DNA of 64,000 nt, from the NCBI GenBank assembly GCA_000004985.1, contig GG738846.1. One strand, 5' to 3'. Of this stretch, positions 1 through 63,336 are shown one piece after another (position 1 is the stretch's first letter; every line of letters starts with the position of its first letter). The position numbers and the translations under genes were made by a program. Below the pieces are notes generated by a model. That model saw only the letters and a list, made by a program, of their open reading frames with translations, made no database searches and was not told where the DNA came from. The DNA comes from Naegleria gruberi. Lineage: Eukaryota.

Positions 1-880
1 TCTCTCGTGTTGCTAGGGATAGGTATTTTGAAAATGATTCTACTGAAACATCATACCCAATCCAAAAGGCGTAATCAGAAGGGTCAGATGTATTTTTCAC
101 CATTGACAAGAGAGTGATAAAAGTAATGCTAGGTAATGTGATGTCAGCATAACTCATTGTAAATCTAGTTCCGTTTGGAGCTGCTCTAGCAGTGTCCCAT
201 ATATCATTCATATCAATAGGATCCAGCACTACATCAAATGGAGCTGAATGATTTCTCTCACAATGATCGTAAAGCTCATAATCGGAACAGTACCAATAGG
301 AGTCTTCGAGGAAAGAGACAATCATGGTTTCATTAAGCTGAAACACACCAAAATTATATCTAGTGTGATCACCAATAAAAAGTGTGAGAGGAAGAGAGGG
401 ATGTCGCTTAATTTCATTCTTAAAAAGTTTGAACATGTGCTTCTCTACGAGAGCGGTATCATAAGGATCGAACCCATCTGATAATATTTCCTTCTCCGTT
501 TCGACAACAAGCATGAGTTCTTTAAGTGTGGAATGTGTAAATTGCACAATATTATCAAAACCCTTCTCTCTCACTGATGAACCCCACTTGAGCATGTATG
601 GAAGAAAACAAGATATCCACACACTTGACAATACCAGCACTGTTAATATTTCTAAGAAAGCAACCAACAATATCAAACATGTCTTGATAGAAATTTTGGA
701 ACGAGATGGAGGTTCTTGATGATGAGTACCAAATTCATCATTCGTATTGTAGACAATATCTGGCAATGCCCTTGAACGTTGCTTTTTAAGATTGCTTTTA
801 GGAGTATCAGCCATCGACTGCTGAGAAGAGGAAAAGTGTTGCTCTGATAATTGATGTGCAAGTGGATGAACTTTTGGCAT
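1..880 (-). CDS. 5' part (~293 codons) of a gene running off the left edge. The predicted protein has one N-terminal transmembrane helix (type II topology) followed by a conserved-looking luminal domain. A glycosyltransferase-like function is a guess.
   Basis: An ATG at about 880 opens a stop-free reverse-strand frame down to position 1. The ORF track lists no stop in this frame, so it must run off the edge. The protein starts MPKVHPLAHQLSEQHF..., with a hydrophobic segment ISIKTCLILLVAFLEILTVLVLSSVWISCFLPY, then ..FIGDHTRYNFGVFQLNE..WYCSDYELYDH.. Listed plus-strand ORFs 248..481 and 513..719 are antisense noise. Confidence 0.5.
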   Translation of the reverse strand, partial: MPKVHPLAHQLSEQHFSSSQQSMADTPKSNLKKQRSRALPDIVYNTNDEFGTHHQEPPSRSKISIKTCLILLVAFLEILTVLVLSSVWISCFLPYMLKWGSSVREKGFDNIVQFTHSTLKELMLVVETEKEILSDGFDPYDTALVEKHMFKLFKNEIKRHPSLPLTLFIGDHTRYNFGVFQLNETMIVSFLEDSYWYCSDYELYDHCERNHSAPFDVVLDPIDMNDIWDTARAAPNGTRFTMSYADITLPSITFITLLSMVKNTSDPSDYAFWIGYDVSVESFSKYLSLATRE

Positions 881-2022
881 TGCGAAGAAGAATGTAGTAG
901 TTATCCAATAATGGTGCTGAAAAAGTTTTTTTTTCTTCCGTGTTGGTTTGTGATTCGAGACTCAATACAATGATTCGATTCCAGTAAGATATTGAGGTGT
1001 ATTTCAATTTTTTTAAATTGTGAGAGTGTGTTTATGGTTGTGTTTGCTAGCTAGTGCAAAGACTCCCTGACCTTTATGTGCAACCTACTTCCCGCTGATG
1101 ATGATCATTATTAACAACAGTGGAAGGTGAAATGTATTAAATAAGGGGTCGAATCGACATAAACGGTCAAACAGCAAGCCTTATTAATAAGTAAAAACAA
1201 AATTATTGTACCAAAAGAAGAAGCGCATAATATTTCTAGTTGGATCTCGATAGGGATTTCCCTGCTTAATTTTTACCTTAATGAAAATATTGATAAGATT
1301 TAGAGGAAATTTAAGTAACTCTATGCAAAACCTCCAGATATTAGAAAAATCATGAAGATGCAATATCGATTGCAACAAGCAAGTAATGGAAATATTTTGC
1401 AGTAACTATTCTCTTAACTTGAGGAGACAGAGGAGGAGTAAGTGTAGAGTTCACCCTCATGAACCTCTCTGGAAAGTTCATCATAGTCCCGTATGCTTTC
1501 TTAGTGTGGCCACATACAATATCACAATTGGAAGCGATAAATCAGCAATGATAACTGCTCCTTAAATTGTCAAATGATTATTTTGGAAAATCTTGCAATC
1601 AAAAATTGTAAATTAAACTTTAATAAATTGAGTTGAACTATACATTACATATCCGTATTATACCAATAGAATGCTTTGCTATGATACACATTGTGGATTA
1701 CATTTCAAATAATTTCTTGGAAAATGGAAAATTGGAGCAGTAAGGATGTTTGGACTCTGAGTCGCTTTACATGAAGTAAAATGTCCTCATCACAAATTTG
1801 GCTGTCAAATTAAACTTAAACGGCAAAATAAAATCATTCCAAAGTATTAATATCATTGATTCATGTATTAAATTGACCGATAGTATCGGAGCAACCAATA
1901 TTATCTATTACAAGCTGAACATTTTTATTATCATCAATTTAATGATAAATATTATTATTTAAAAATGTCATCATCGACCACCCATCACGATGATGACTTG
2001 AATTCTGCACATCATTCGGAAC

Positions 2023-3420
2023 ATGAAAATAATTCTCATCACTATGTACATTCACTTAGTAACAACAACAACAGATGGTAGTGGCAATGAACAAAAGCTG
2101 AGGATATGTATGATTTCCGATTTCTTTTATCCAGGCTTTGGAGGAGTAGAATCACACATCTATTGTATATCAACAGGATTAATTAAAAGAGGGCACAAGG
2201 TTATTGTCATTACAACATCCTATGATGATCGGAAAGGTGTAAGATATTTAACGAATGGAATTAAAGTTTATTACATTCCTGTATTTAAAATTAATACATC
2301 TGCTGGCAGTGCAACATTACCGTTCATCTTTACTTCTTTACCACTGTTGAGAAATATTCTGATCAGGGAGAGAATTGAAATTGTGCATGGACATCAATGT
2401 ACATCCAATGTTTGTAATGAAGGACTCTTACATGCAAGAACCATGGGACTGAAATGTTTTTTCACTGATCATTCATTGTTTGGATTTGGAGATGAAGGAG
2501 GAGTACACATCAATAAGGTTTCTAGGTTTGTATTGAGTGAAGTGGATCATGTAATTTGCGTTTCACATACGCTGAAGGAAAATCTGACCCTTCGAGCATC
2601 TTTGAATCCATTCAAAACTACTGTCATACCACATGCTGTAGATACGAACGTATTCAAACCACTTAGAACGCACCCACCAAGAAGGGATGAAAGACTTAAA
2701 ATTGTATCAACATCAAGATTAGTTTACAGGAAGGGAGCGGATTTGCTGATTTCTATCATTCCTGTAATTTGTACAAAGTACCCACATGTGGATTTTATCA
2801 TTGCTGGAGATGGACCAAATTTAATTGAAATGACTGAAATGATTGAAAGATATGAACTATTTGACAGAGTGGAATTATTGGGAGCAAAACCTTATCATGA
2901 GATTCCTAGCGTTCTTCAAAGAGGTCACCTCTTCTTGAATACAAGTCTAACTGAGGCATTTTGCATGGCAATTTTGGAAGCAGCTAGTTGTGGACTTTTT
3001 GCTGTCAGTACAAATGTTGGTGGAGTAAGGGAAGTATTGCCAGACAATGACATGGTTTTATTGGCAAATCCAGATCCACTCTCTTTATGCGAAGCTATGG
3101 AAAAAGCCATTGAATGTCATGTTTATAATACTGACCCAATTCAAACGCATGAACGTGTATGCGAAATGTATAATTGGGATAAGGTAGTTGCATGTACAGA
3201 AGCTCTATACGTAGAATCCATGCATACATGTAAGGAGAGAGGCCTATTGGAAACCATCACATCTTACAACTCTGTTGGTTTCTTCCATGGAAAAATTATT
3301 GGACTTCTTACAACTCTGGACTATCTATTTTATCAAGCTCTTGAATACATGTATCCCAGAGAGGAAATAGATGTATGCCCAGAATTTGGTCCTTTCTACC
3401 TTAAAGATGTTAACGATTAA
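2023..3420 (+). CDS. GPI3: Phosphatidylinositol N-acetylglucosaminyltransferase catalytic subunit (PIG-A / Gpi3; GT4 family). This is the first step of GPI-anchor synthesis.
   Basis: Continuous 465-aa ORF. RICMISDFFYPGFGGVESHIYCISTGLIKRGHKVIVITTSYDDRKGVRYLTNGIKVYYIP..FTDHSLFGF..SRLVYRKGADLL..EAFCMAILEAASCGL.. is collinear with animal PIG-A along its whole length. The true start is probably the in-frame ATG near 2110 (MISDFFYP), or there is an unrecognised short 5' exon. Confidence 0.9.
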   Translation: MKIILITMYIHLVTTTTDGSGNEQKLRICMISDFFYPGFGGVESHIYCISTGLIKRGHKVIVITTSYDDRKGVRYLTNGIKVYYIPVFKINTSAGSATLPFIFTSLPLLRNILIRERIEIVHGHQCTSNVCNEGLLHARTMGLKCFFTDHSLFGFGDEGGVHINKVSRFVLSEVDHVICVSHTLKENLTLRASLNPFKTTVIPHAVDTNVFKPLRTHPPRRDERLKIVSTSRLVYRKGADLLISIIPVICTKYPHVDFIIAGDGPNLIEMTEMIERYELFDRVELLGAKPYHEIPSVLQRGHLFLNTSLTEAFCMAILEAASCGLFAVSTNVGGVREVLPDNDMVLLANPDPLSLCEAMEKAIECHVYNTDPIQTHERVCEMYNWDKVVACTEALYVESMHTCKERGLLETITSYNSVGFFHGKIIGLLTTLDYLFYQALEYMYPREEIDVCPEFGPFYLKDVND

Positions 3421-21009: not shown

Positions 21010-23081
21010 TTATTTCTTTTGATTTCTTAACTGTTCATTTTCTCGTCTGAGTCTTTGATTTTCTTCCATTAAATCCTGAACTTTTTGTTCTAATTTTGAG
21101 ATTAAATCTAAAGGAGACATATTGTCATTGGTTTTTGCTTTTTCATTCAAAAGATTAAATATGAGTTGCTGTTGGGATTGAAGACTGGCCAATTGATTTG
21201 AAAGAGATGATATAGAAACTTCTTTGGTAACACTGGATATGGATACCTTCTTCTTTGGAGCTGTGCTGCTTGGTGTTACAGCTTCTTCAGGTATCTCATC
21301 TACTTCTTTTACTTCAAAGTTTCTCTTTTTAACTTTTTTAGATTCCACAATTTGCTCATTGCTTGGTGATTCATTGGTAATTTTCTCTACAGAATCTTCA
21401 TCAGTTTCAGTAACTTCAAAACGACCTTTCTTTTCAACCTTCTTCGTAGTATTGCTGCTGGCTGTTTCCTCTTCCTTCTTGAGCTCATCTATGAAATTCC
21501 AACGACTAACAGCCTTCTTTTCTTGGTGGACTTCTTCTACGACTGAAGGTGAGTTAACTTCATCAGTTGAAAATCTGCTTGCAATTTCATTTTCTTCCAT
21601 TGGAACAGTTGTGCTCATAGTTGTTGACATGGTATCTTGCATGGAAACAAAGGTTGGAGATTCTTGTTGTGTCATGGTGAATGTAATCTTGGTTTGACTG
21701 TTTGATTTCTTAATGCCTGCCAAGAGTTTGGCTCTCTCAGCCAAAGCAGGAAGTCCATTTAGAATCACTTTCTTAATAAGATCTTTTTGTTTGACAGCCT
21801 TTGCAAAGAACTTGTGTTTTAAGAGTTGTGAGGCAAGTGGTCTCTTGGTAGGGTCCTTTTGCAAACACAATGATATCATATCTCTAAATATTTTAGAGAA
21901 TTTTCTTGTTTCTGTATCTACGAGTTGTGGTGGTTCTTGTTCCATCACAATGTACATAACTTTAACTGGAGGTAAACCTTCATAGGGAGCTTTTCCATGG
22001 GCTAGCTCAATGGCAGTAATACCAAATGACCAAATATCAGCTTTGCAATCATAACCATGAAATTGTTCCATCACTGAAAAATGTTAAATCCAATATAATA
22101 ACATATATAACACTTACCTTCAGGAGCCATCCAACATGGAGATCCAACAAAGGTTTGTCTCTTACTCCTTCTATCTCCAGACATTTCAATGATATTGGCA
22201 CTAACTCCAAAATCACCAATTCTCACAAGACCATCTTCATTAATGAGAATATTTGATGCCTTGATATCTCTGTGAATTTGGCCATTCTCATGGAAATAAG
22301 CCAAACCTTCCAAAACTTGATATAAAACGACTGATATCAATTCTTCGGATGGTAAACCCTCGTTATATTTGTATCTCATAATATCATAAAGTGATCCGGC
22401 TTCCATAAGTTCCATAACGAGATATAATTCTGTTTCATGTGTAAATGAAGTCAAATAATTTACAATATGTTCATGAAAACTTGTAACCATAGTATGAATT
22501 TCCTTTGTGATTGTTTGAAGTACATTATCTTCCAATCTTTCCAGATCCAATTTTTTAATAGCCACACGTTCATTGAAAGGAATACAAATCGCTTCATAGA
22601 CAGGTCCACTTGCTCCAAAACCAATTGGTTCCAATAATTTATATTGATCAGCAACAGTAGGATATTCTCTTCTCAGACTAGGTGAAAGAGCAGCTGCTGC
22701 ACCAACAGAAAAACCTGTTCCAATTGTTGGAGTATCTTTTGATATAGATAATGATGATGAAGCTCGAGTAAGTTGTGCAGATGGAGGTCTCATCTCCTGT
22801 TGTGGAGAAGTAATATTTGCTCCAATATTGTTTGTATTCACACCGACTGGAGTACTTGTTGATTGATTTGAAGATGTTTGTGTCAGTGTTTTCATTCCGT
22901 TGGCATTATTTGATGATGTTACAATTGAAGGAGGAGATGAAATATTTGGTGTTTGAGATGAAGGTGTACTCGAAGAGCTAGAATTTGGCAATGGAGTACT
23001 GGTACCGGATGATGATAGGGAATTAGTTTGTGGTTTGCTGTTATTCTGTAGCATTGGAGTTGATGAAAGTAAATCATTCAC
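21010..23081 (-). CDS. STE20-family (GCK/OSR1-like) serine/threonine protein kinase with a coiled-coil C-terminus. Two exons.
   Basis: Exon 1 is about 23081..22118 and exon 2 is 22073..21010. The 44-nt intron GTAAGTGTTATATATG...TTTTTCAG lies between kinase subdomains VIII and IX (...SPCWMAPE|VMEQFHGYDCKADIWSFGITAIELAHGKAPY). The kinase motifs GFGASGPVYEA, VAIKK, HRDIKASNILI and DFGVS are intact. The 5' end is uncertain: the listed start at 23081 is GTG, the first in-frame ATG is MLQNNSK, and an upstream S/T-rich ORF 23084..23329 in another frame may belong to the gene. Confidence 0.85.
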
Positions 23082-24077: not shown

Positions 24078-24614
24078 ATGTCATCAACAATAGAATCAAC
24101 CTCATCGCCATCAACAACCTCGGAAACATTTATTCAAAGTGCGGAAGATAAATCAATTGCTGAATTTATGATTAAACAAGCAACACTCGAACAACAAAGA
24201 CTGAAGCAAAATGGAGTAGACGTTAAATTATTAAAAGTTAAGAATGTTGCCATCATTAGAGATGAAACTCCAACAACAACACCAAATACTCAACAACAAC
24301 CTTCACAAAATAAGAATAAGAATAAGAAAAAACCAACCCGAAATGTGATTAATAGAGTTGAAGTGAATACTGATTTGGATTTTGATATATTTCCTCAAAT
24401 TTTACTCTCTGCACCAGTCAAATGTATTCCAAAGCCTTCACTCAATTATGTTAATGTTATTCTCATTGGTCATGGTGATTTGACAGATCCTGCCTATTTG
24501 TGCCCATACACCTATCCAGCAGATGATAAAGAAAATAAATTACAACACTGGGCATTCATCAATAACAGTCTAAAGAGAACAGACCTTGATATTGATGCTT
24601 TCCAAGATGTTTAA
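24078..24614 (+). CDS. Hypothetical 178-aa protein
   Basis: Clean ATG-initiated ORF with a basic linker (NKNKNKKKPTRN) and a conserved-looking C-terminus ...NVILIGHGDLTDPAYLCPYTYPADDKE.. No family recognised. Confidence 0.4.
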   Translation: MSSTIESTSSPSTTSETFIQSAEDKSIAEFMIKQATLEQQRLKQNGVDVKLLKVKNVAIIRDETPTTTPNTQQQPSQNKNKNKKKPTRNVINRVEVNTDLDFDIFPQILLSAPVKCIPKPSLNYVNVILIGHGDLTDPAYLCPYTYPADDKENKLQHWAFINNSLKRTDLDIDAFQDV

Positions 24615-24923: not shown

Positions 24924-27206
24924 ATGTCCGATAGAGTGGTACTTGGTTTCATGTCCGATTCTTGTGTGAATCATCAACAAGATGAAGAAGAATTAATGAA
25001 TGATGAGGAGGAAGAGGATTTTGAATTGATGGAATGTATCAAGTGTTTTAATAAGAATGACAGTAGGAAGTTAAATGGCAATAACAATAGAAATTCAATA
25101 ATTGAAAATAATTTGACAAGTGGAGAGAGTTTTAATGGGTTTAATAATGTGAATAGGCCTTCAACAAGACCATTTGAGGATTTTTTCAATATCTTTTTTA
25201 ATTATGGAGCCAAGGATACATTTGATAATATTCAGACAAATACTGAACAGGAAAAGGTTCATCGATCATCAATTTCAAATAAGGAATATAGAAGAATAAG
25301 AAAGAAGGTGCTTGAAAGAGTGCTAAAACAATTGAAAACCAATGGGGAAACTAGTATGGTCATTCCAAAGAGGAGAGAAATTAAGGATATTATGGATACC
25401 ATGTTTGCAAGATCGAATGGGTACAGTTTAAAGGTTGTTGCCTACTCGTTTAGAAAAGTTTGGACAAAAATATTTAGAGATATTGTTGAATCTGGAATGG
25501 ATTCAAAATTGAAGACCATTAAGAAACTCTATCCAAATGATACAGTTGTATATGTTCCAAATCATAGAAGTTATATGGATTTTCTCTTGTTGAGCTATGT
25601 TTGTTTCCTTTGTAAAGTTTATCCAATTCCAAATATTATTGCTGGAGAAGATTTCCTTCAAATGATGCTTGTGAGTGATGTAATGAAACATTGTGGTGCT
25701 TTATTTATGAAGAGACAGTTCAATGATCAACCAGTTTACAAGACTGTTTTTAAGGAATATATTTGTACCTTGTTGGAGGAAGGAAGCTTTTTGGAATTCT
25801 TTGTGGAGGGAACCCGTTCAAGAAATGGCAAAACCTACCATCCCAAGTTTGGTATACTTAATCTTGTGATTGATGCTTATATGCAAAAGAGAGTGAGTAA
25901 TATTGTGTTTGTTCCAGTCTATGTCAGTTATGAATCCATGATGGAATCTCAATCACACGTACGAGAAATGCTTGGTGAATCAAAAAAGAAGGAAACCACA
26001 GCAAATATGATTACTGGACTATTGGATTCAATTACAACCAATTTTGGAGATATTGCTCTCAAGATTGGAGATCCAATTTCCTTATCATCCTTCCTTGCAG
26101 ATCCTAACAATGAAGGTTTAAGAAAGAATAGAAGAGAATTGTCATCTCAATTGGGGTTCTCCATTACCAAATCATTGAATGATAATTATACATGTCTTTC
26201 CTCTCATATTATTTCTTCATTATTATTACAATATTTGGGAGATGTTAGATTGGCAGATAAGAGATGTACAATTCCATTTTCCACGCTCATTGAGAAGGTA
26301 TCATGGCTGAAGGACGAAATCCAAAGACGAAACGTTCCTCTTTATTTAAATGAAGCTGAAAGAATGCCAAATCAAATGATTGAAAGAACATTACAAGTTT
26401 TTAAAGGGCACGTTGAAATGAAAGGATTATCCATTAGAGTGAAAAGTCCAAGAGATTTCCTCTTACTTAGCATTTACAAAAATTCTCTGGCTCCAGTTTT
26501 TACAAAAGAGTCCCTTTTATTGTGTGCTCTTCATTCGCTGAGATTGAAGGATGTTAACTTTGAGGAAATTGTCGAGTTGGAAACTCAACCATTTGATATT
26601 GAGGAATGGAAGGAGAGATGTTCAGTGTTGGGAGAATTATTAAGCTTGGAAATTCATCCTCAAGACATGTTAGATTCGAGTGAGAGATTTAATTCGACAT
26701 TATCAGATATGGAGGAAAGAGGAATTTTAACTTGTCAAAAAGTGGAAGGAGGCAAAATTTCTGTCAAGATTAATAATTTGGGATATTTTGAATTTGTCTG
26801 TTCATTGCTCTGGCCATCTATTGATACATATTCGATAATTATTGGGTATTGTTGTTTGATTGCCAACAGAGGAACTATCCATTCATTTGCTTTGGATAAG
26901 TTTGTTAAGAGTTGTCATGAATTTCTTGAAAAACTCTATCACGAAACAAGTGTGCCTTTCTATGAATCTGTCTCTGTATTGACTATTAGAAATGTTATTT
27001 CAAGATATTCCACATGGAATATTTTACATCGAGTGAGTGTGAATAATGTAAATACCATTCAAATTTCTGAATATTATGCCAATCAACCTTCAGAAATTAG
27101 AGAATGGTGGGATATTATTTCACTCTATGCCAAGTACAAGCAAAAGGAGAACTTTTTTGATTTGTATATTGACTTTGTTCCAGTGAATAGAATTTCAAAA
27201 TTGTAA
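24924..27206 (+). CDS. Dihydroxyacetone-phosphate / glycerol-3-phosphate O-acyltransferase (GNPAT/DHAPAT-like, PlsB family) with a C-terminal PTS1 (-SKL)
   Basis: 760 aa. Acyltransferase motif I HxxxxD (VPNHRSYMDFLL) and motif III (FVEGTRSRNG). Overall collinear with animal GNPAT. The protein ends ...VNRISKL*, a canonical peroxisomal targeting signal 1. Confidence 0.85.
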   Translation: MSDRVVLGFMSDSCVNHQQDEEELMNDEEEEDFELMECIKCFNKNDSRKLNGNNNRNSIIENNLTSGESFNGFNNVNRPSTRPFEDFFNIFFNYGAKDTFDNIQTNTEQEKVHRSSISNKEYRRIRKKVLERVLKQLKTNGETSMVIPKRREIKDIMDTMFARSNGYSLKVVAYSFRKVWTKIFRDIVESGMDSKLKTIKKLYPNDTVVYVPNHRSYMDFLLLSYVCFLCKVYPIPNIIAGEDFLQMMLVSDVMKHCGALFMKRQFNDQPVYKTVFKEYICTLLEEGSFLEFFVEGTRSRNGKTYHPKFGILNLVIDAYMQKRVSNIVFVPVYVSYESMMESQSHVREMLGESKKKETTANMITGLLDSITTNFGDIALKIGDPISLSSFLADPNNEGLRKNRRELSSQLGFSITKSLNDNYTCLSSHIISSLLLQYLGDVRLADKRCTIPFSTLIEKVSWLKDEIQRRNVPLYLNEAERMPNQMIERTLQVFKGHVEMKGLSIRVKSPRDFLLLSIYKNSLAPVFTKESLLLCALHSLRLKDVNFEEIVELETQPFDIEEWKERCSVLGELLSLEIHPQDMLDSSERFNSTLSDMEERGILTCQKVEGGKISVKINNLGYFEFVCSLLWPSIDTYSIIIGYCCLIANRGTIHSFALDKFVKSCHEFLEKLYHETSVPFYESVSVLTIRNVISRYSTWNILHRVSVNNVNTIQISEYYANQPSEIREWWDIISLYAKYKQKENFFDLYIDFVPVNRISKL

Positions 27207-27248: not shown

Positions 27249-28262
27249 TTAATGATTTTGTTGTTGTTTATTCTTCAAGGCAGTGTAAATGCAATATTCT
27301 GTCTGGTCAAGCATGTCAATACATAAATCTTCATTGTTAGCCAATCGGCTTGGTAATCTCACATTCATTCTGGTAAAGTACTCTCCTGTGGTATCTTCAT
27401 AATCAGGATTTGCAAGAATATTGAGAGCATAATAAGCAGCCTTATCTGGTGATGTTATTTGTTTGAATCGTCTTAGGAAGGACATTAAATTTTGTTTAGC
27501 ATCTTCTTCACTATACCTGTGGAAATTAGTATTCAATGATAAACTTCCCACTGGATCCAATGCATTTACCATAATATTACTCGATTCTAATCTTTCAGCC
27601 ATTTCAAGCATTACCAAAATTGATGCTAATTTCGAATAGGCATATTGCTTATTAGGTTGATATTCTTTTGGTTCATTCCAGAGTTTTTCTAAAAGAAAGT
27701 TTTCATCTCTTGGATAATGATGAATTTTAGATGAAATAAATAATATTTTAGAAGCTTGATTATAATCTCTGACTCCTCTTTTCAATAATGGTACAAGCTG
27801 AGCTGTCAGATAGTATGGACTTAATAAATTAACTTGATATGTTTCCTCAAATCCATCTTGTGTTTTCTTAAATTCTGGAAGAAGTCCAATTCCAGCATTA
27901 TTAACCAGAGCATGTAAATTAGAGTGTTTTGCAGTGTATTCTTGTGAAAAATTCCGCACACTATCCAAACTTGTCAATTCCAATTCCATAGTTTCAAATA
28001 ATCCAGGTTTCTTTGGTTGTGTTTTTTCCAAATGTTCATAAACAGTATCAAATGTTAATTTCCCCTTTTCCATTGTTCTAACCGTACCAATAACATGTCC
28101 ATTCAGAGAGGTTAATAACTTTGTTAATGCCAATCCGTATCCACTCGAACATCCTGTAACAATATACTTTCTCCTCTCCAAATCAATTTCCTTGCTCATC
28201 AGCTGACGAAGCGAAATAGATTGGGGTGGATTTTTACCAATCCTACGTAATGTATTGCCCAT
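27249..28262 (-). CDS. Short-chain dehydrogenase/reductase (SDR, retinol-dehydrogenase/WWOX-like)
   Basis: 337 aa. TGCSSGYGLA (TGxxxGxG cofactor motif), NNAG and catalytic YAYSK (YxxxK). The N-terminus MGNTLRR fits an N-myristoylation consensus (MGxxxS/T-like). Confidence 0.85.
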   Translation of the reverse strand: MGNTLRRIGKNPPQSISLRQLMSKEIDLERRKYIVTGCSSGYGLALTKLLTSLNGHVIGTVRTMEKGKLTFDTVYEHLEKTQPKKPGLFETMELELTSLDSVRNFSQEYTAKHSNLHALVNNAGIGLLPEFKKTQDGFEETYQVNLLSPYYLTAQLVPLLKRGVRDYNQASKILFISSKIHHYPRDENFLLEKLWNEPKEYQPNKQYAYSKLASILVMLEMAERLESSNIMVNALDPVGSLSLNTNFHRYSEEDAKQNLMSFLRRFKQITSPDKAAYYALNILANPDYEDTTGEYFTRMNVRLPSRLANNEDLCIDMLDQTEYCIYTALKNKQQQNH

Positions 28263-56577: not shown

Positions 56578-59400
56578 ATGTCAAAGCCTATTCGATTCAC
56601 ACAAACACGAAGATCTTTCATCACTTCCAACAACAACAATGATGACTGGCTTGCACCATTGCTTGCCCAAACAAACATGCCCGAAGGCAACTTTAAAAGA
56701 CCATTGGCAGTGGGTGGTACTTTTACGAATGGTGATAAAACATATAAAATCATAGAGATTTTTGTTGAAGGAGGTCAAGCAAAAACATTCAAATGTTTAG
56801 ACAGGTACAACAATATTGTGGTGGTAAAATTGCTTCCTTGTGAGAATGTGTTATCGTATGGAGATTGTATAGAATTCAACTTGTCACTTTCTAATGAAGC
56901 AAAGAGAACATTTTCACGATATATTATCTATCAGATGGATGGATTTACAGTAACAATCAATAATTCCGAAAATAATATTGATGAACAATATATTTGTGTT
57001 GTTACAGAGTATTGTAAAGAAGGCTATTTGAATGTTATAGGTCATTCTTTTGACATAACCATCTCACTTGTATTACAGTTTATTTTCCAGAGTGGAATAG
57101 GTTTAGATAAATTACATAATGTTGGTTTTGTTCACATGGATTTGAAACCAGAGAATTTATTCATAAGAGAATTCACACAACACAAGATTCTCTTGGTTGT
57201 TGGAGATTTAGGAATAGCCAGAAAGTTCCAAAACCAAGAAGAACAAGAAGATGGTGAGTACTACTGGGGTACCGAAGGCTACAGAGATCCAATTTATAGG
57301 AAATGTGGTACATTTTCTTCTTCATGTGATGTTTGGGGCATTGGTGTAACTTTTTTGGAGTTTATTTCAAAGAAAAGGATTAGTACTGATTTTGAGACAA
57401 TGTCAGAAATAGAGAGACACTGGTATATTGAATTATTATTTGCTGAAATATTATTAACCAAACCTAGAGAACAAGAAGAATGGTCTATCATCAAATATAT
57501 TGTTAAAGGAATGTTAACAGAAAACATTGACAAAAGATTAACCATTTTGGATATCTTTAGAACTATTTTTACAGAAGCAGTTAATGAAATAGATTTTGCA
57601 AGCAATTTCCAAAGATTGAAAGATGTTTTTAGAATGAATGAATCTGTGGTTATTTCATGTCTACATGAAAATGGTATGAATTTAAAATATGTTGATGATG
57701 GATATTTAGATAGAAGAGATATTATAGAAATAGCTGTCTCTCAAAATGGTCTCTCTTATGAATATATCAAATCAAATCACAATCAATTCATGTATGACAA
57801 AAAAATAATTCAAAAAGCTTACCAAAGTAACCCAGCTGTTCTTAAGTTCATTCCAGAACATTTCCACAATACTGAATATTTGGGAAATGATATGCGACTA
57901 AAAAATTCAGACAATCAAAGTATTAGCATAATTGATAGTAATGATATAAGTATCATGATGCACAAAGTTAAAATAGATGGAATGTACTTAATTTCAGCTT
58001 CAAGTGAATTAAGAAATACCTATGAACTTGTTAAGGAAAGTGTTAAATCTAGAGGGATATCATTACAATATGCCTCTGATGATCTTAAAAAGAAGTACGA
58101 AATTTGCGACATTGCTATTTCTCAGAATGGGTTGGCTTTGGAGTTTGTTGATGAAAGTATAATAGATGACAATTTGGTGCTTAAGGCTGTGAAAAATAAT
58201 GGGATGGCGTTACAGTTTGTATCTGATATTTGGAAAACCGAAGAAATTGCCCGAACCGCCATTCGTTCCAAGGGAAAAGCTATTCAGTTCATACCAAAAG
58301 ATTTGTTAGATCAATATGCAGTGATTTTATTTAATGAAAATCTCGAAAGCATGTTCGTATGTTTGTTTGTGCAAGGATGGGAATATGTTGAAAAGTGTAT
58401 TCGAAATTATGGCGGTAAGGTAGACTATTTAGAAGGTATATTACTAAGCAAATCAGAACTGAGTACCATTGTATTAGCTAGTGAACAAGGTGATTCAAAT
58501 GCACAATTTAATCTTGCAGTTATGTATGAAAATGGTGAAGGAATATTACAAGATTATTCAAAAGCATTTGAATGGTTTTTAAAAAGTGCTGAACAAGGTG
58601 ATTCAAATGCACAATTTAATCTTGCAGTTATGTATGAAAATGGTGAAGGAATAGTACAAGATTATTCAAAAGCATTTGAATGGTTTTTAAAAAGTGCTGA
58701 ACAAGGTTATTCAAATGCACAATTTAATCTTGCATTGATGTATGATAATGGTATTGGAATATTACAAGATTATTCAAAAGCATTTGAATGGTATTTAAAA
58801 AGTGCTAAACAAGGTGATTCAAGAGCACAATTTAATCTTGCATTGATGTATGAAAATGGCAAAGGAGTAGAACAAGATTATTCAAAAGCATTTGAATGGT
58901 TTTTAAAAAGTGCTAAACAAGGTGATTCAAATGCACAATTTAATCTTGCATTGATGTATGAAAATGGCATTGGAATATTACAAGATTATTCAAAAGCATT
59001 TGAATGGTATTTAAAAAGTGCTGGACAAGGTTATTCAAGAGCACAATTTAATCTTGCATTGATGTATGAAAATGGTATTGGAATATTACAAGATTATTCA
59101 AAAGCATTTGAATGGTATTTAAAAAGTGCTGAACAAGGTTATTCAAATGCACAATTTAATCTTGCATTGATGTATGAAAATGGTGAAGGAATATTACAAG
59201 ATTATTCAAAAGCATTTGAATGGTATTTAAAAAGTGCTGAACAAGGTGATTCAAGAGCACAATTTAAGCTTGCAGTTATGTATTATAATGGTGAAGGAAT
59301 ATTACAAGATTATTCAAAAGCATTTGAATGGTTTTTAAAAAGTGCTGAACAAGGTAATTCAAGTGCACAATTCAAAATTAAGGCTTTAAAGATGGAATAA
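56578..59400 (+). CDS. Protein kinase (TKL-like, atypical catalytic motifs) with a central ~40-aa repeat region and a C-terminal array of 8-9 Sel1 (TPR-like) repeats
   Basis: 940-aa single exon. Kinase core: VVVKLL (beta3 Lys), HMDLKPENLF (catalytic loop, non-RD), VGDLGIA (DLG instead of DFG), GTEGYRDP. The middle region has about 6 repeats of the form NG(M/L)(A/S)L(Q/E)(F/Y)(V/A)(S/D)D...AV(K/S)(N/Q)NG. The C-terminus is 9x (S)NAQFNLA(V/L)MYENGEGILQDYSKAFEWFLKSAEQGD = Sel1 repeats. Confidence 0.9.
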   Translation: MSKPIRFTQTRRSFITSNNNNDDWLAPLLAQTNMPEGNFKRPLAVGGTFTNGDKTYKIIEIFVEGGQAKTFKCLDRYNNIVVVKLLPCENVLSYGDCIEFNLSLSNEAKRTFSRYIIYQMDGFTVTINNSENNIDEQYICVVTEYCKEGYLNVIGHSFDITISLVLQFIFQSGIGLDKLHNVGFVHMDLKPENLFIREFTQHKILLVVGDLGIARKFQNQEEQEDGEYYWGTEGYRDPIYRKCGTFSSSCDVWGIGVTFLEFISKKRISTDFETMSEIERHWYIELLFAEILLTKPREQEEWSIIKYIVKGMLTENIDKRLTILDIFRTIFTEAVNEIDFASNFQRLKDVFRMNESVVISCLHENGMNLKYVDDGYLDRRDIIEIAVSQNGLSYEYIKSNHNQFMYDKKIIQKAYQSNPAVLKFIPEHFHNTEYLGNDMRLKNSDNQSISIIDSNDISIMMHKVKIDGMYLISASSELRNTYELVKESVKSRGISLQYASDDLKKKYEICDIAISQNGLALEFVDESIIDDNLVLKAVKNNGMALQFVSDIWKTEEIARTAIRSKGKAIQFIPKDLLDQYAVILFNENLESMFVCLFVQGWEYVEKCIRNYGGKVDYLEGILLSKSELSTIVLASEQGDSNAQFNLAVMYENGEGILQDYSKAFEWFLKSAEQGDSNAQFNLAVMYENGEGIVQDYSKAFEWFLKSAEQGYSNAQFNLALMYDNGIGILQDYSKAFEWYLKSAKQGDSRAQFNLALMYENGKGVEQDYSKAFEWFLKSAKQGDSNAQFNLALMYENGIGILQDYSKAFEWYLKSAGQGYSRAQFNLALMYENGIGILQDYSKAFEWYLKSAEQGYSNAQFNLALMYENGEGILQDYSKAFEWYLKSAEQGDSRAQFKLAVMYYNGEGILQDYSKAFEWFLKSAEQGNSSAQFKIKALKME
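58483..59397 (+). repeat. Tandem array of about 8.5 near-identical 108-bp units encoding the Sel1 repeats
   Basis: The unit GAACAAGGTGATTCAAATGCACAATTTAATCTTGCAGTTATGTATGAAAATGGTGAAGGAATATTACAAGATTATTCAAAAGCATTTGAATGGTTTTTAAAAAGTGCT recurs head-to-tail with only a few substitutions per copy (for example GAT/TAT, GCAGTT/GCATTG, GAAGGA/ATTGGA). Confidence 0.8.
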
Positions 59401-59448: not shown

Positions 59449-62400
59449 TTAAATAAAGAATGGATTGTATGGATTTTGTAATAAATTTGGCAAGTTTTCA
59501 GATTGTGCTTTGAGAATTAAATTTGATAAGTAATTGTAATATTCACTTGGGAATGATTGGCTCAATTGTTTCATTAGGTATTTACTGGTATAGTAGAGAA
59601 TGGTTGGGTTGAATTTCTCTTGTTGTAATAAATTCTTGAAAAAGGTAATTCCACCAATAGATTCCAATACATTAACAGACTTGTTACATTTTTCAATTAT
59701 TAAAATTAGTAATACAGAACAAATAGATGACAATTGGCTTGATTGTTGTTGATTTGAATGCAAACTTTCGAATAAATAGTACAATATACTAATACTGATA
59801 TCTTTCAATAAATAAAAAGGTATTGTCAAGTATCCATTCAAAAACATTTCACACATATCCAAATTAAATAATTCATTAGATGATTTCAATGAAGACTGAA
59901 GAGAATTAACAATGGAAATAAAATCAAACACAATATAAAATGATTTGATGAGAATGTGTAAATTAGTCTCTTTTCTGTTAACAATACATTCTAATAGAGA
60001 TTCATTAATATTCTTAATCATAATCTTGACTAGATCGCCATGTGTTGTACATTTTGATTTGAATAATTGAATCTTCTTTTCCAATAAATTCAAATAGAGA
60101 ATTCTTACTTTAGGATTTTCATGATTAATCATATCTGTCATTAATTGATTAAGTTTCAATTTCAAATCTTGATAATATTTTGGTGTAAGATTATCATAAT
60201 CTTCAAAGAATTTGATAAAATTGAATAATACCAATTCACCTTGTCTTAAATCATCATCACTTTCCATAAATGTTGATGATGAATTAGTTGTTGTTGAATT
60301 TACACTACTACTAGCCCCATTAAAGGAACTATTGAGACCACTACCAGTAGTAGCATTGCCACCGCCACCACCAATACCAGAACCACTCATGTTTGGTCCA
60401 TTGGAAGTAGTATTAGTAGCACCTGTACAATTAAAGATTAAATCTTTAATAATTTTTTCAAATAAATTAATATTACTCATGTTCATATTATTTAAAATAT
60501 TTGTTGTGTAATTTTTAAATTCAGAGTTCAAGTATTTACAAGATAATTTTTGTAATCCAATAATAAACTTCATTAAATTATCAATTTTGAAAAAGAATGT
60601 TTCGGATTTTACAAAGTTGGTGTATAAGAATTTTGTGAATAATTTTACAAAAGTATAATGTTTGTCAACGTTTGGAATAAATTTGAATAGTAAATGTAAA
60701 TATAAAGGTAAATTTGATTGATCAAATATTAAAAATAAATAATCTTTTTGGAATGACTCCATATCTGGTAATTCCAAATTAATGATATAATCAAATATGA
60801 TTAAAAATAAATTATACTTGCTATTTAAATTTAACAAGTGATTATATTCTGTATAAAGTTGAATAATGGAATATATTGAGTTTGGTAATTTTTTAAGCAA
60901 ATTATTTTGATGATTAATTTGAAATGTTAATAGAGAAATTAAAATATCATAACAATTATATTCCTCATTAAAATTACTCAGATTAAATAAAATCAAATCG
61001 AATACAATTCGAACATCCAATTGATCAATTAATAATTGAGGATTTAACTCAATTATAATGTTATTATTCAAATTAATATTTGTGTTATAAATAATAAAAT
61101 GATGATACAGGAAATAAATTAAAATCTCACTAATCTTGGTCTTGATAAATGAATCGTTATGGTTCATTGTAAAATAAACCAGCGACATGTCGCAAAACTT
61201 GGAAAACAAATCAGAAATTACAAATTCAATATTTGGAATATTCTGATAGAGATTGAATAAATTAGTAACATAATAATAAATATTGAATATCAGTTTGAAA
61301 ACATAATAAATATTGGTATTATCATTGGTATCTAACATTTCCAAAAAGAAACTATTCAATTGCTTCATAGTTAATTTAGATTGATCATTTCCATAAATAG
61401 TGTGTGAAATCATTACTGTAAAGAATAGGCAGGCATCATTTAACTTGATTTCATCGCCATTAGAATTTATAATTTGATTCAAAATAGTATTGAACTGATC
61501 ATAATTTTCAATAATAGATTGAATATACAAGTCATTGTTATTCTTGTATTCATAATATTGTTCAATGTATTGTGATAGATTTGGAAGCAAAATTTCATCA
61601 ATATTATTCAAAACAAATTCTTCATGTTGAATTTCACTCTTGATACTTTGAATTTGGTGTTTAATAGTATCCATATTTTCAATATTTAAAATCTTGTTAC
61701 TTTTATCAATTTCTGCTTGTTTATCTTCAAATTTAGTAAATTTTCTAAATTGACTTCCAAAATAGATGAAATCCATGATAGTTTGATCAATTTCATTCTT
61801 TGAATCACCTCCAATGGATGCACCTCCTAATGATGTGAATGATGATGATTTTTCATTTAATGAGTAGTTATTATTTAATACATCATTATTTAATAATCTA
61901 TTCTTGTATAAATAATATTCAAAAACTCTTGAAGTTAATCCTGAAATTCTCTTATCATAATTTAACATGTTTAATATGAGAGTTTGATTTTTCTGTAAAA
62001 TTTTAATTAAATGCCTATGTAAATATTTAATACAGAATTGTAATTGTGTTTGTAAATTGGCATTTAAATGTTTTTTTGATAAGCCATCTTTACAATAGTA
62101 ATAAATATTTTTATATTGATCCAATAATGAATCATCCCTCTTGAATGTTGTAAGAAAGGTCTTTAATAAATATAAACAAATTAATAAAATTGATACAGAA
62201 TCTTCATTCTCTTGCATTCTTTTCAAAATCTCCTTATAAATGTAAACTTTACTGTTTTTATCATTGTGATATTTGAAAAGTAATTTGAGTGAATATGAAT
62301 TTTTAAAGTAAATATTACTATGTTTCGTATTGTTATTGTTATTCAATGCATTATCATATAAAACATATTCATTATTCAATAATTGACTATTATTACTTAT

Positions 62401-63336
62401 TAGAGTACTAGCACTTCCAATAAATGATTGAAATGTATTTAAATTTCCACTATATGAATTAATAGAAGTTGAATTATTTCCTCCAATAAAACTTCCACCA
62501 AGTGTCGTATTACTTGTCAAATTTGATGAGCTCGAATCAGAGCCACTCATCGATGTTAAGTGATTATAAATAATATTCATTGATGAATGATGTTGATTAT
62601 TGAGAACAATATTATCCTTTTTAATTATACTTGTCAATTCCTCAACTAGATCATGAATTATATTTTGAATGAATAAACTTTTAGGAGCATTCTTTGTTTG
62701 ATCCTTTACATAGGTAAGTGATGATCTCAAATTATTGGAAGTATGAGTAATGCCATTCAGGAAGGTTGGATCCATCATGAGTAACATGATATCATCGGAA
62801 TCTCCTCCATTTGCAGAGGAAGTAGGTGCACTTCCTCCACTCAAATAATTATTACTTGGAGTACCAGCAGATGATGTAAAATTGAGACTATTTCTTGGAG
62901 TGGTCACAGAGGAAGGTGATGAGAATAGATTTGTTGTAGGTGATCCAAAGTTGGTTGATGATGTAATCACTCGAGGAGATTGATTTGCATTATTATTAGT
63001 ATTGGAAGGTGAATTGAATTTTGTATATTGTATTGGAGAATTGGGTTGTTGGAAGGGAATTGAGGAGGCTGTTCGGTGGTGTAAATAGTGTTGCATCTCA
63101 TTGTAGCCTGAGAGTGATCCATTCTCAAAGGAGTGTCTTCGGTTAGGATCATTGTGATGACTATTTAAATATTGTGATGAGGAAGCTGCAGTTGAGGATG
63201 GAGGTGGTGGTGCATTTTGAGTTGATGTTGGTTGGCCATTATTTGTAGTGGGTGTTCCAAAAGCAACACTCGAATGAGTAGAGGCAGATGAAGAGGATGG
63301 TGTGCCAACAAGTCCTCCTTGTGGATGATGAGACAT
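59449..63336 (-). CDS. Large (1295 aa) hypothetical protein. It has an S/T/P/N-rich N-terminus and a very long N/I/L/Y-rich helical body, possibly an alpha-solenoid.
   Basis: Uninterrupted ATG-initiated 3.9-kb ORF, which is itself strong evidence of coding in about 75%-AT DNA. No family recognised. There is an internal Gly/Ser/Asn-rich linker (GSGIGGGGGNATTGSG). Confidence 0.55.
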   Translation of the reverse strand: MSHHPQGGLVGTPSSSSASTHSSVAFGTPTTNNGQPTSTQNAPPPPSSTAASSSQYLNSHHNDPNRRHSFENGSLSGYNEMQHYLHHRTASSIPFQQPNSPIQYTKFNSPSNTNNNANQSPRVITSSTNFGSPTTNLFSSPSSVTTPRNSLNFTSSAGTPSNNYLSGGSAPTSSANGGDSDDIMLLMMDPTFLNGITHTSNNLRSSLTYVKDQTKNAPKSLFIQNIIHDLVEELTSIIKKDNIVLNNQHHSSMNIIYNHLTSMSGSDSSSSNLTSNTTLGGSFIGGNNSTSINSYSGNLNTFQSFIGSASTLISNNSQLLNNEYVLYDNALNNNNNTKHSNIYFKNSYSLKLLFKYHNDKNSKVYIYKEILKRMQENEDSVSILLICLYLLKTFLTTFKRDDSLLDQYKNIYYYCKDGLSKKHLNANLQTQLQFCIKYLHRHLIKILQKNQTLILNMLNYDKRISGLTSRVFEYYLYKNRLLNNDVLNNNYSLNEKSSSFTSLGGASIGGDSKNEIDQTIMDFIYFGSQFRKFTKFEDKQAEIDKSNKILNIENMDTIKHQIQSIKSEIQHEEFVLNNIDEILLPNLSQYIEQYYEYKNNNDLYIQSIIENYDQFNTILNQIINSNGDEIKLNDACLFFTVMISHTIYGNDQSKLTMKQLNSFFLEMLDTNDNTNIYYVFKLIFNIYYYVTNLFNLYQNIPNIEFVISDLFSKFCDMSLVYFTMNHNDSFIKTKISEILIYFLYHHFIIYNTNINLNNNIIIELNPQLLIDQLDVRIVFDLILFNLSNFNEEYNCYDILISLLTFQINHQNNLLKKLPNSIYSIIQLYTEYNHLLNLNSKYNLFLIIFDYIINLELPDMESFQKDYLFLIFDQSNLPLYLHLLFKFIPNVDKHYTFVKLFTKFLYTNFVKSETFFFKIDNLMKFIIGLQKLSCKYLNSEFKNYTTNILNNMNMSNINLFEKIIKDLIFNCTGATNTTSNGPNMSGSGIGGGGGNATTGSGLNSSFNGASSSVNSTTTNSSSTFMESDDDLRQGELVLFNFIKFFEDYDNLTPKYYQDLKLKLNQLMTDMINHENPKVRILYLNLLEKKIQLFKSKCTTHGDLVKIMIKNINESLLECIVNRKETNLHILIKSFYIVFDFISIVNSLQSSLKSSNELFNLDMCEMFLNGYLTIPFYLLKDISISILYYLFESLHSNQQQSSQLSSICSVLLILIIEKCNKSVNVLESIGGITFFKNLLQQEKFNPTILYYTSKYLMKQLSQSFPSEYYNYLSNLILKAQSENLPNLLQNPYNPFFI

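Follow-up and report, generated by a model that had tools for sequence, protein, structure and literature searches.

The window analyzed here is a 64,000-nucleotide stretch of Naegleria gruberi DNA with a GC content of ∼33%. Its ORF list contains an uninterrupted open reading frame (ORF) on the plus strand at positions 24924–27206, which starts with ATG and encodes 760 amino acids. This ORF is a complete single-exon coding sequence for the N. gruberi glyceronephosphate (DHAP) O-acyltransferase (GNPAT). It ends with TAA at 27204–27206, immediately next to a second TAA, and all ORFs antisense to it encode ≤ 71 amino acids. The product is identical (100%, full length) to XP_002682608.1, named “glyceronephosphate O-acyltransferase” of Naegleria gruberi and encoded on a 1.0-Mb scaffold; the same protein is registered as EFC49864.1 and as UniProt D2UZ07. 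An unrecognized 3′ intron, which would have displaced the true C-terminus, was ruled out by three observations. The stop codon of a convergent gene on the minus strand (27249–28262) lies at 27249, only 42 nucleotides downstream of the ORF; the orthologues in N. lovaniensis and Willaertia magna also consist of a single exon; and the orthologous proteins end collinearly in -SKL in five of five cases.

The surroundings of the gene were also inspected. The upstream plus-strand ORF at 24078–24614 has no Pfam match, and neither a sequence resembling fatty-acyl-CoA reductase (FAR) nor a further acyltransferase-coding sequence occurs elsewhere in the 64-kb window. The possibility that the gene is a mis-modelled FAR-GNPAT fusion (FARAT) with a hidden upstream FAR exon was rejected, because a tblastn search of the whole window with the FAR domain of the N. 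gruberi FARAT gave chance matches only (E > 2). The neighboring ORFs are of the eukaryotic housekeeping type (HAUS1, kinases, a WD40 protein, UDP-glucose dehydrogenase, an eRF1-family protein, PDEase, PIGA, Dcp2, and others), and no lipid-metabolism context was found among those of the window. The convergent gene at 27249–28262 encodes a short-chain dehydrogenase/reductase (SDR), and it was considered as a possible acyl/alkyl-DHAP reductase. However, it is POR/RDH-like in a PDB sequence search, it lacks a type 1 peroxisomal targeting signal (PTS1), and its adjacency to the GNPAT gene is missing in N. lovaniensis and Willaertia and is kept only on a near-identical, N. gruberi-like metagenome contig. 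A functional link between the SDR and the GNPAT was therefore rejected as evidence.

The 760-residue protein has the domain architecture expected of a GNPAT-type acyltransferase. A PlsC-type acyltransferase domain (PF01553; residues 199–335, positions 25518–25928, plus strand) was detected with an E-value of 5.5e-23 and a score of 81.7 bits (cut-off, 23). It is followed by a GPAT_C domain (PF19277; residues 346–702, positions 25959–27029, plus strand; E = 1.4e-40), which covers profile positions 2–342 of 344 and corresponds to the helical C-terminal region common to PlsB, GPAT1/2, and GNPAT. All four catalytic motifs are intact, in the family patterns HxxxxD, GxxFxxR, FxEGxRSRxGK, and xPVxxxYE, and the residues that are invariant over an alignment of 47 homologous sequences are kept. 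Motif I, HRSYMD (25563–25580), lies within the VPNHRSYMDF sequence already pointed out in the initial annotation and contains the catalytic His/Asp dyad, H214 (codon at 25563–25565) and D219 (codon at 25578–25580), both conserved in ≥ 90% of the 47 homologues. Motif III, FVEGTRSRNGK (residues 293–303, 25800–25832), includes E295, G296, R298, S299, and R300, which are invariant in the 47 sequences, and P331 and Y336 of motif IV, VPVYVSYE (residues 330–337, 25911–25934), are almost invariant. Motif II, GALFMKR (residues 258–264, 25695–25715), is a clade-specific form of GAFFxRR. The FARAT of Tetrahymena has GAFFTKR here, so the lysine at the altered position also occurs in a relative that is cited as experimentally bifunctional (PMC13012113).

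A structure model of the protein was calculated with AlphaFold2 from the alignment of 47 homologues (mean pLDDT 83, pTM 0.83). It matched human GPAT1 (8e4y) over the full length, with an E-value of 2.9e-31 and a TM-score of 0.76 normalized to the target. The only solved relatives found by sequence were this structure and a 901-residue glycerol-3-phosphate acyltransferase (9vuq). The model is confident from about residue 120 on, and its pLDDT is < 50 for residues 1–77 and 95–115. The N-terminal region of residues 1–115 (24924–25268, plus strand) is acidic, Asn-rich, poorly conserved, and predicted to be disordered. It contains 23 Asp + Glu against 11 Lys + Arg and is therefore unlike a mitochondrial presequence. 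In all, ∼145–200 residues precede the acyltransferase region. The first Pfam match starts at residue 199, the FAR module (PF07993 and PF03015) gave no Pfam match anywhere in the protein, and no FAR domain is present at its N-terminus. No convincing transmembrane segment was found either; the best 19-residue Kyte–Doolittle mean, 1.63, falls within the catalytic fold.

The protein ends in ...VNRISKL, a canonical PTS1 (Ser-Lys-Leu, 27195–27203, plus strand), as the initial annotation had reported; the tail that forms its context is IDFVPVNRISKL. No PTS2-like motif was found in the protein. Of the 42 ORFs of ≥ 100 amino acids in the window, no other has an ending of the consensus [SAC][KRH][LM], for which the chance expectation from the amino-acid composition of the window is 2.3e-3 (6e-4 for SKL itself). 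The five heterolobosean orthologues, from N. gruberi, N. lovaniensis, N. fowleri, Willaertia, and an environmental relative, all have the -SKL ending, and the residues just before it vary among them (VNRI, NYRI, YNRI, PSRT, and TQRV). PTS1-like tripeptides also terminate ∼100 of the 120 nearest homologues; in this set of the best 120, the counts were AKL 26, PKL 18, SKL 17, ARL 16, SRL 8, AKM 5, PKI 4, and ANL 2, together with further types. The members of the set that have no PTS1-like end look like fragments or bacterial sequences, and the bacterial relative P0078 ends in -DQI. In the AlphaFold2 model, the last ∼9 residues are an unstructured coil (mean pLDDT of the final 10-residue block, 62), which is compatible with an accessible PTS1 tail. 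Given the conserved signal, we infer that the protein is peroxisomal. PEX5 is present in every species of a published panel, including N. gruberi, peroxisomes have been documented in heteroloboseans (PMC7549135), and a 2022 comparative study reported a PTS1 or PTS2 on the ether-lipid enzymes DHAPAT, alkyl-DHAP synthase, and FAR of Euglenozoa and also of Naegleria.

We then examined the position of the protein in its family. The closest sequences are the orthologues of an environmental relative (P0005, 63% identity), N. fowleri (55%), N. lovaniensis (54%), and Willaertia magna (52%). Beyond these, phmmer bit scores over the same 250 residues (144–394 of the N. gruberi protein) were 207–212 for heterolobosean FARATs, 174 for the Tetrahymena FARAT, 171 for the bacterial relative P0078, 158–165 for animal GNPAT, 153 for 9vuq, 125 for Escherichia coli PlsB, and 107 for human GPAT1. 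In a neighbor-joining (NJ) tree of 538 columns rooted with E. coli PlsB, the eukaryotic GNPAT and FARAT proteins were united against PlsB-type sequences with 94% bootstrap support. The stand-alone proteins of Naegleria and Willaertia formed a 100% clade with a long stem (0.59), which adjoined the heterolobosean FARATs, including that of Percolomonas, with 58% support. A second, short alignment of 241 columns was rooted with a fragment of human GPAT1, which represented the GPAT1/2 type; here the split between GNPAT/FARAT and GPAT1 plus PlsB had a bootstrap value of 58%, and the position of the Naegleria clade within the ingroup was unstable. The distances to the outgroup in this alignment were 1.52 for the Naegleria/Willaertia clade and 1.26 for the heterolobosean FARATs. 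For the relation of the two N. gruberi paralogues to each other, we relied on a published maximum-likelihood (ML) tree, which groups both with the FARAT of Neovahlkampfia (support 99.9/99; bioRxiv supplement). With the bit scores and the published ML tree in agreement, the protein is placed by its sequence within the eukaryotic GNPAT/FARAT clade, apart from PlsB and GPAT1, as the initial annotation had proposed. Its bit scores with the NCBIfam models of PlsB were far below the equivalog cut-offs (220.9 against 610 for NF003441 and 219 against 618.5 for TIGR03703).

The protein was also compared with known enzymes. Animal GNPAT is likewise a stand-alone protein of ∼670–760 residues with the acyltransferase and GPAT_C domains, motifs I–IV, and a C-terminal PTS1 (-AKL, -ARL, or -SRL in the animal sequences among the matches). 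The collinearity with animal GNPAT noted in the initial annotation was borne out over ∼680 residues, and the search aligned 77% of the query at 27% identity. However, the identity of animal sequences to the N. gruberi protein is only ∼23–27%, and the latter begins with an additional stretch of ∼115 residues that is disordered and acidic. The FARATs (Tetrahymena TtFARAT, Dictyostelium FARAT, and N. gruberi EP00686_P015591) share the PTS1 ending and are the nearest relatives of the acyltransferase half, but they carry an N-terminal fatty-acyl-CoA reductase module of ∼480 residues that the present protein lacks, and its branch is much longer than theirs. Mitochondrial GPAT1/GPAM and bacterial PlsB have the superfamily, the domain pair, and the fold in common with it. 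They are, however, less similar to it (107 and 125 bits, compared with 158–212), have no PTS1 (E. coli PlsB ends in -GEG), and lie outside the GNPAT/FARAT clade with its 94% support. The ER-type GPATs (GPAT3/4 and yeast Gpt2/Sct1) are membrane-anchored acyltransferases without a GPAT_C region. A placement with these enzymes is not supported by the architecture of the N. gruberi protein, which combines a GPAT_C domain with the lack of a convincing transmembrane segment.

The ether-lipid context suggested in the initial annotation, together with its question of whether an alkyl-DHAP synthase (AGPS) partner exists, has been answered in print. A study that appeared first as a bioRxiv preprint (2025) and then in PNAS (2026) screened 376 eukaryotic genomes for FAR, GNPAT, AGPS, and PEDS1; according to it, AGPS, FARAT, and PEDS1 are all encoded by N. 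gruberi (PMC13012113). In the same work, FARAT's FAR activity and its GNPAT activity are localized to the peroxisome, and the separation of FAR and GNPAT is regarded as essentially Holozoa-specific (PMC13012113). The N. gruberi FARAT (EP00686_P015591) has 1,145 residues, with FAR at 2–477 and GNPAT at 474–1144, and the protein studied here is listed as EP00686_P014679 (bioRxiv supplement). In the Foldseek comparisons given there, residues 51–736 of the latter match residues 2–673 of human GNPAT with an E-value of 4.6e-35, and the value against human FAR1 is 4.9, i.e., there is no FAR domain (bioRxiv supplement). As the genome encodes a FARAT as well, the present gene is most aptly called a FAR-less paralogue. 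It is a second, fast-evolving GNPAT that has been kept in Naegleria and Willaertia. In the published ML tree, the branch of the stand-alone N. gruberi GNPAT (1.87) is about four times as long as that of the N. gruberi FARAT (0.47; bioRxiv supplement). Since the stand-alone proteins branch with heterolobosean FARATs, they are not orthologues of the split animal gene, and their lack of FAR appears to have arisen independently; judged by these sequences, Naegleria and Willaertia represent an apparent independent case of the FAR/GNPAT split.

Selection on the gene was estimated from the near-identical N. gruberi-like allele on the metagenome contig ERZ929261, the pair of N. gruberi and N. lovaniensis being too divergent for this purpose at 54% amino-acid identity. 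The allele differs by eight synonymous and no nonsynonymous substitutions, over ∼454 synonymous and ∼1,826 nonsynonymous sites, and by a single additional His codon within the disordered N-terminal part. This result points to strong purifying selection on the stand-alone GNPAT gene, so its long branch reflects past divergence, not decay.

Based on these results, we consider it likely that the gene encodes a peroxisomal DHAP acyltransferase of N. gruberi (GNPAT/DHAPAT, EC 2.3.1.42) that is imported by PEX5 and is predicted to make 1-acyl-DHAP. The protein would be synthesized in the cytosol, and PEX5, the PTS1 receptor, would bind its free C-terminal -SKL and mediate its entry into the peroxisome. 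Inside, the His214/Asp219 dyad of motif I, together with motifs II–IV, would transfer an acyl chain from acyl-CoA to the sn-1 position of DHAP. The resulting 1-acyl-DHAP would pass to AGPS and on to ether lipids and, with PEDS1, to plasmalogens; once reduced, it could also supply ester glycerolipids. We infer the acylation of DHAP in peroxisomes from the clade and the PTS1. To our knowledge, there is no sequence rule that separates DHAP-using from G3P-using members of the family, so it is solely the phylogeny that suggests DHAP rather than G3P as the acceptor. The initial annotation had further pointed to peroxisomal DHAPAT as the committed entry enzyme of ether-lipid synthesis in animals. The assignment to the GNPAT-type family stood, but the FARAT contains a second GNPAT domain, and the 760-residue protein is therefore not necessarily the entry enzyme. 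With a GNPAT domain already supplied by the FARAT, the stand-alone copy may not be the main route into ether lipids, and its long branch and altered motif II could indicate a change of function. As a tentative scenario, which we regard as possible rather than probable, an ancestral FARAT was duplicated and one copy dropped the FAR module to become a stand-alone GNPAT, convergently with the split in Holozoa. The fast-evolving copy would then have specialized, for example in acyl-DHAP for ester glycerolipids or in another acyl-chain pool, with the FARAT serving plasmalogens.

Other explanations of the gene were weighed against the peroxisomal DHAP acyltransferase. A peroxisomal enzyme that uses G3P, or both DHAP and G3P, and feeds ester glycerolipids instead of ether lipids would agree with the catalytic motifs, which are common to PlsB and GPAT1, with the match of the fold to GPAT1, and with the 221 bits obtained with the PlsB model, and a FARAT in the same genome covers the entry step of ether lipids. 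We nevertheless regard this explanation as unlikely, because the protein nests within the GNPAT/FARAT clade and its score is far under the PlsB cut-off of 610. The stand-alone GNPAT might instead be a neofunctionalized or regulatory paralogue, which arose when a FARAT was duplicated and lost FAR, and which then evolved rapidly toward another acyl donor or acceptor or toward a non-catalytic partner role such as stabilizing AGPS. Mammalian GNPAT does stabilize AGPS. The branch lengths, the stem of 0.59, the larger outgroup distances, and the clade-specific change in motif II would fit such a history, but every invariant catalytic residue is kept, selection is strongly purifying, and all orthologues have kept the PTS1, and we judge it rather improbable.

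The initial annotation had taken the host for a fungus and related the gene to the lipid metabolism of AM fungi; a fungal peroxisomal DHAPAT would imply an unsuspected acyl-DHAP/ether-lipid pathway in fungi. The only observation in its favor is the AT-rich composition of the window. In contrast, the product is identical to a protein of N. gruberi, a heterolobosean amoeboflagellate, its nearest relatives are from Naegleria and Willaertia, and the metagenome contig carries an almost identical allele, again next to the SDR gene. Because of this identity, the statements on fungi do not apply, and we give a fungal origin practically no credence. The peroxisomal DHAP acyltransferase is the reading that we retain.

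The gene had been recorded, named, and assigned to its family before the present analysis, and the partner enzymes and the PTS signals on the ether-lipid enzymes of Naegleria were likewise on record. The name glyceronephosphate O-acyltransferase dates from the annotation of the N. gruberi genome, and in this respect little changes. The stand-alone copy is listed in the tables of the preprint, but it is not discussed in the main text. The accession of the gene was not found in the supplements of PMC9512073 or of the PNAS version, and a full-text literature search for its accessions gave no match. The addition made here is a modest one: a second, stand-alone, fast-evolving GNPAT beside the FARAT in Naegleria and Willaertia appears to have gone unremarked in the literature. 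With two GNPAT domains, one in the FARAT and one in the stand-alone protein, N. gruberi represents an undiscussed exception to a FAR/GNPAT split confined to Holozoa. N. gruberi is known to oxidize lipids preferentially, and its peroxisomes have been proposed, from predicted targeting signals, to share in this oxidation. A peroxisomal acyl-DHAP step could therefore be of interest to researchers of Naegleria lipid metabolism, as lipids are the preferred fuel and the pathogenic sister species shares the gene.

The gene that encodes the predicted stand-alone DHAP acyltransferase (GNPAT) in the window is flanked on its 3' side by a convergent gene for a short-chain dehydrogenase (SDR) of the classical type (adh_short; 337 aa; 27249..28262, minus strand), and just 42 nt separate the two stop codons. 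A PDB sequence search returned protochlorophyllide-reductase/RDH-like enzymes as the best relatives of this SDR, and its C-terminus, which ends in -QQNH, carries no PTS1. The adjacency of the two genes is present in the near-identical metagenome contig (ERZ929261) but absent from N. lovaniensis and Willaertia. Immediately 5' of the GNPAT gene, on the same strand, lies a 178-aa ORF rich in Ser, Thr, Asn, and Lys (24078..24614, plus strand), for which no Pfam match was found, and a tblastn search across the entire window detected no FAR-domain similarity at this position.

The GNPAT genes of Naegleria and Willaertia are intronless, whereas the 63%-identical orthologue on the environmental heterolobosean contig (L004) was called as three adjacent genes (221..2624, plus strand). 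Gaps of 32 and 38 nt separate these three same-strand calls, a pattern that points to either a pair of very short introns or frameshifts in the assembly.

A second FAR-like protein of N. gruberi (P0124; 354 aa), annotated as "predicted protein, partial," is encoded outside the window on a 530-kb scaffold. In the FAR-GNPAT fusion (FARAT) of N. gruberi, the FAR domain shares 43% identity with P0124; when the two are compared by eye, the P0124 model apparently lacks a stretch past the Rossmann motif. This protein could represent either a stand-alone paralogue of FAR or a poor gene model.

Elsewhere in the window, a 1295-aa ORF (59449..63336, minus strand) with no Pfam match at E ≤ 1e-5 covers the most AT-rich stretch (60001–62000, 23% GC). 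At 21010..23081 (minus strand), a protein kinase domain is split between a pair of ORFs with a 4-nt overlap, with kinase profile positions 1–167 in ORF 22071..23081 and positions 172–263 in ORF 21010..22074; this looks like a single kinase gene interrupted by a short intron or a frameshift. In the 940-aa protein encoded at 56578..59400 (plus strand), a kinase domain is accompanied by DUF4116 repeats in five stretches and Sel1 repeats in eight, which is an unusual architecture.
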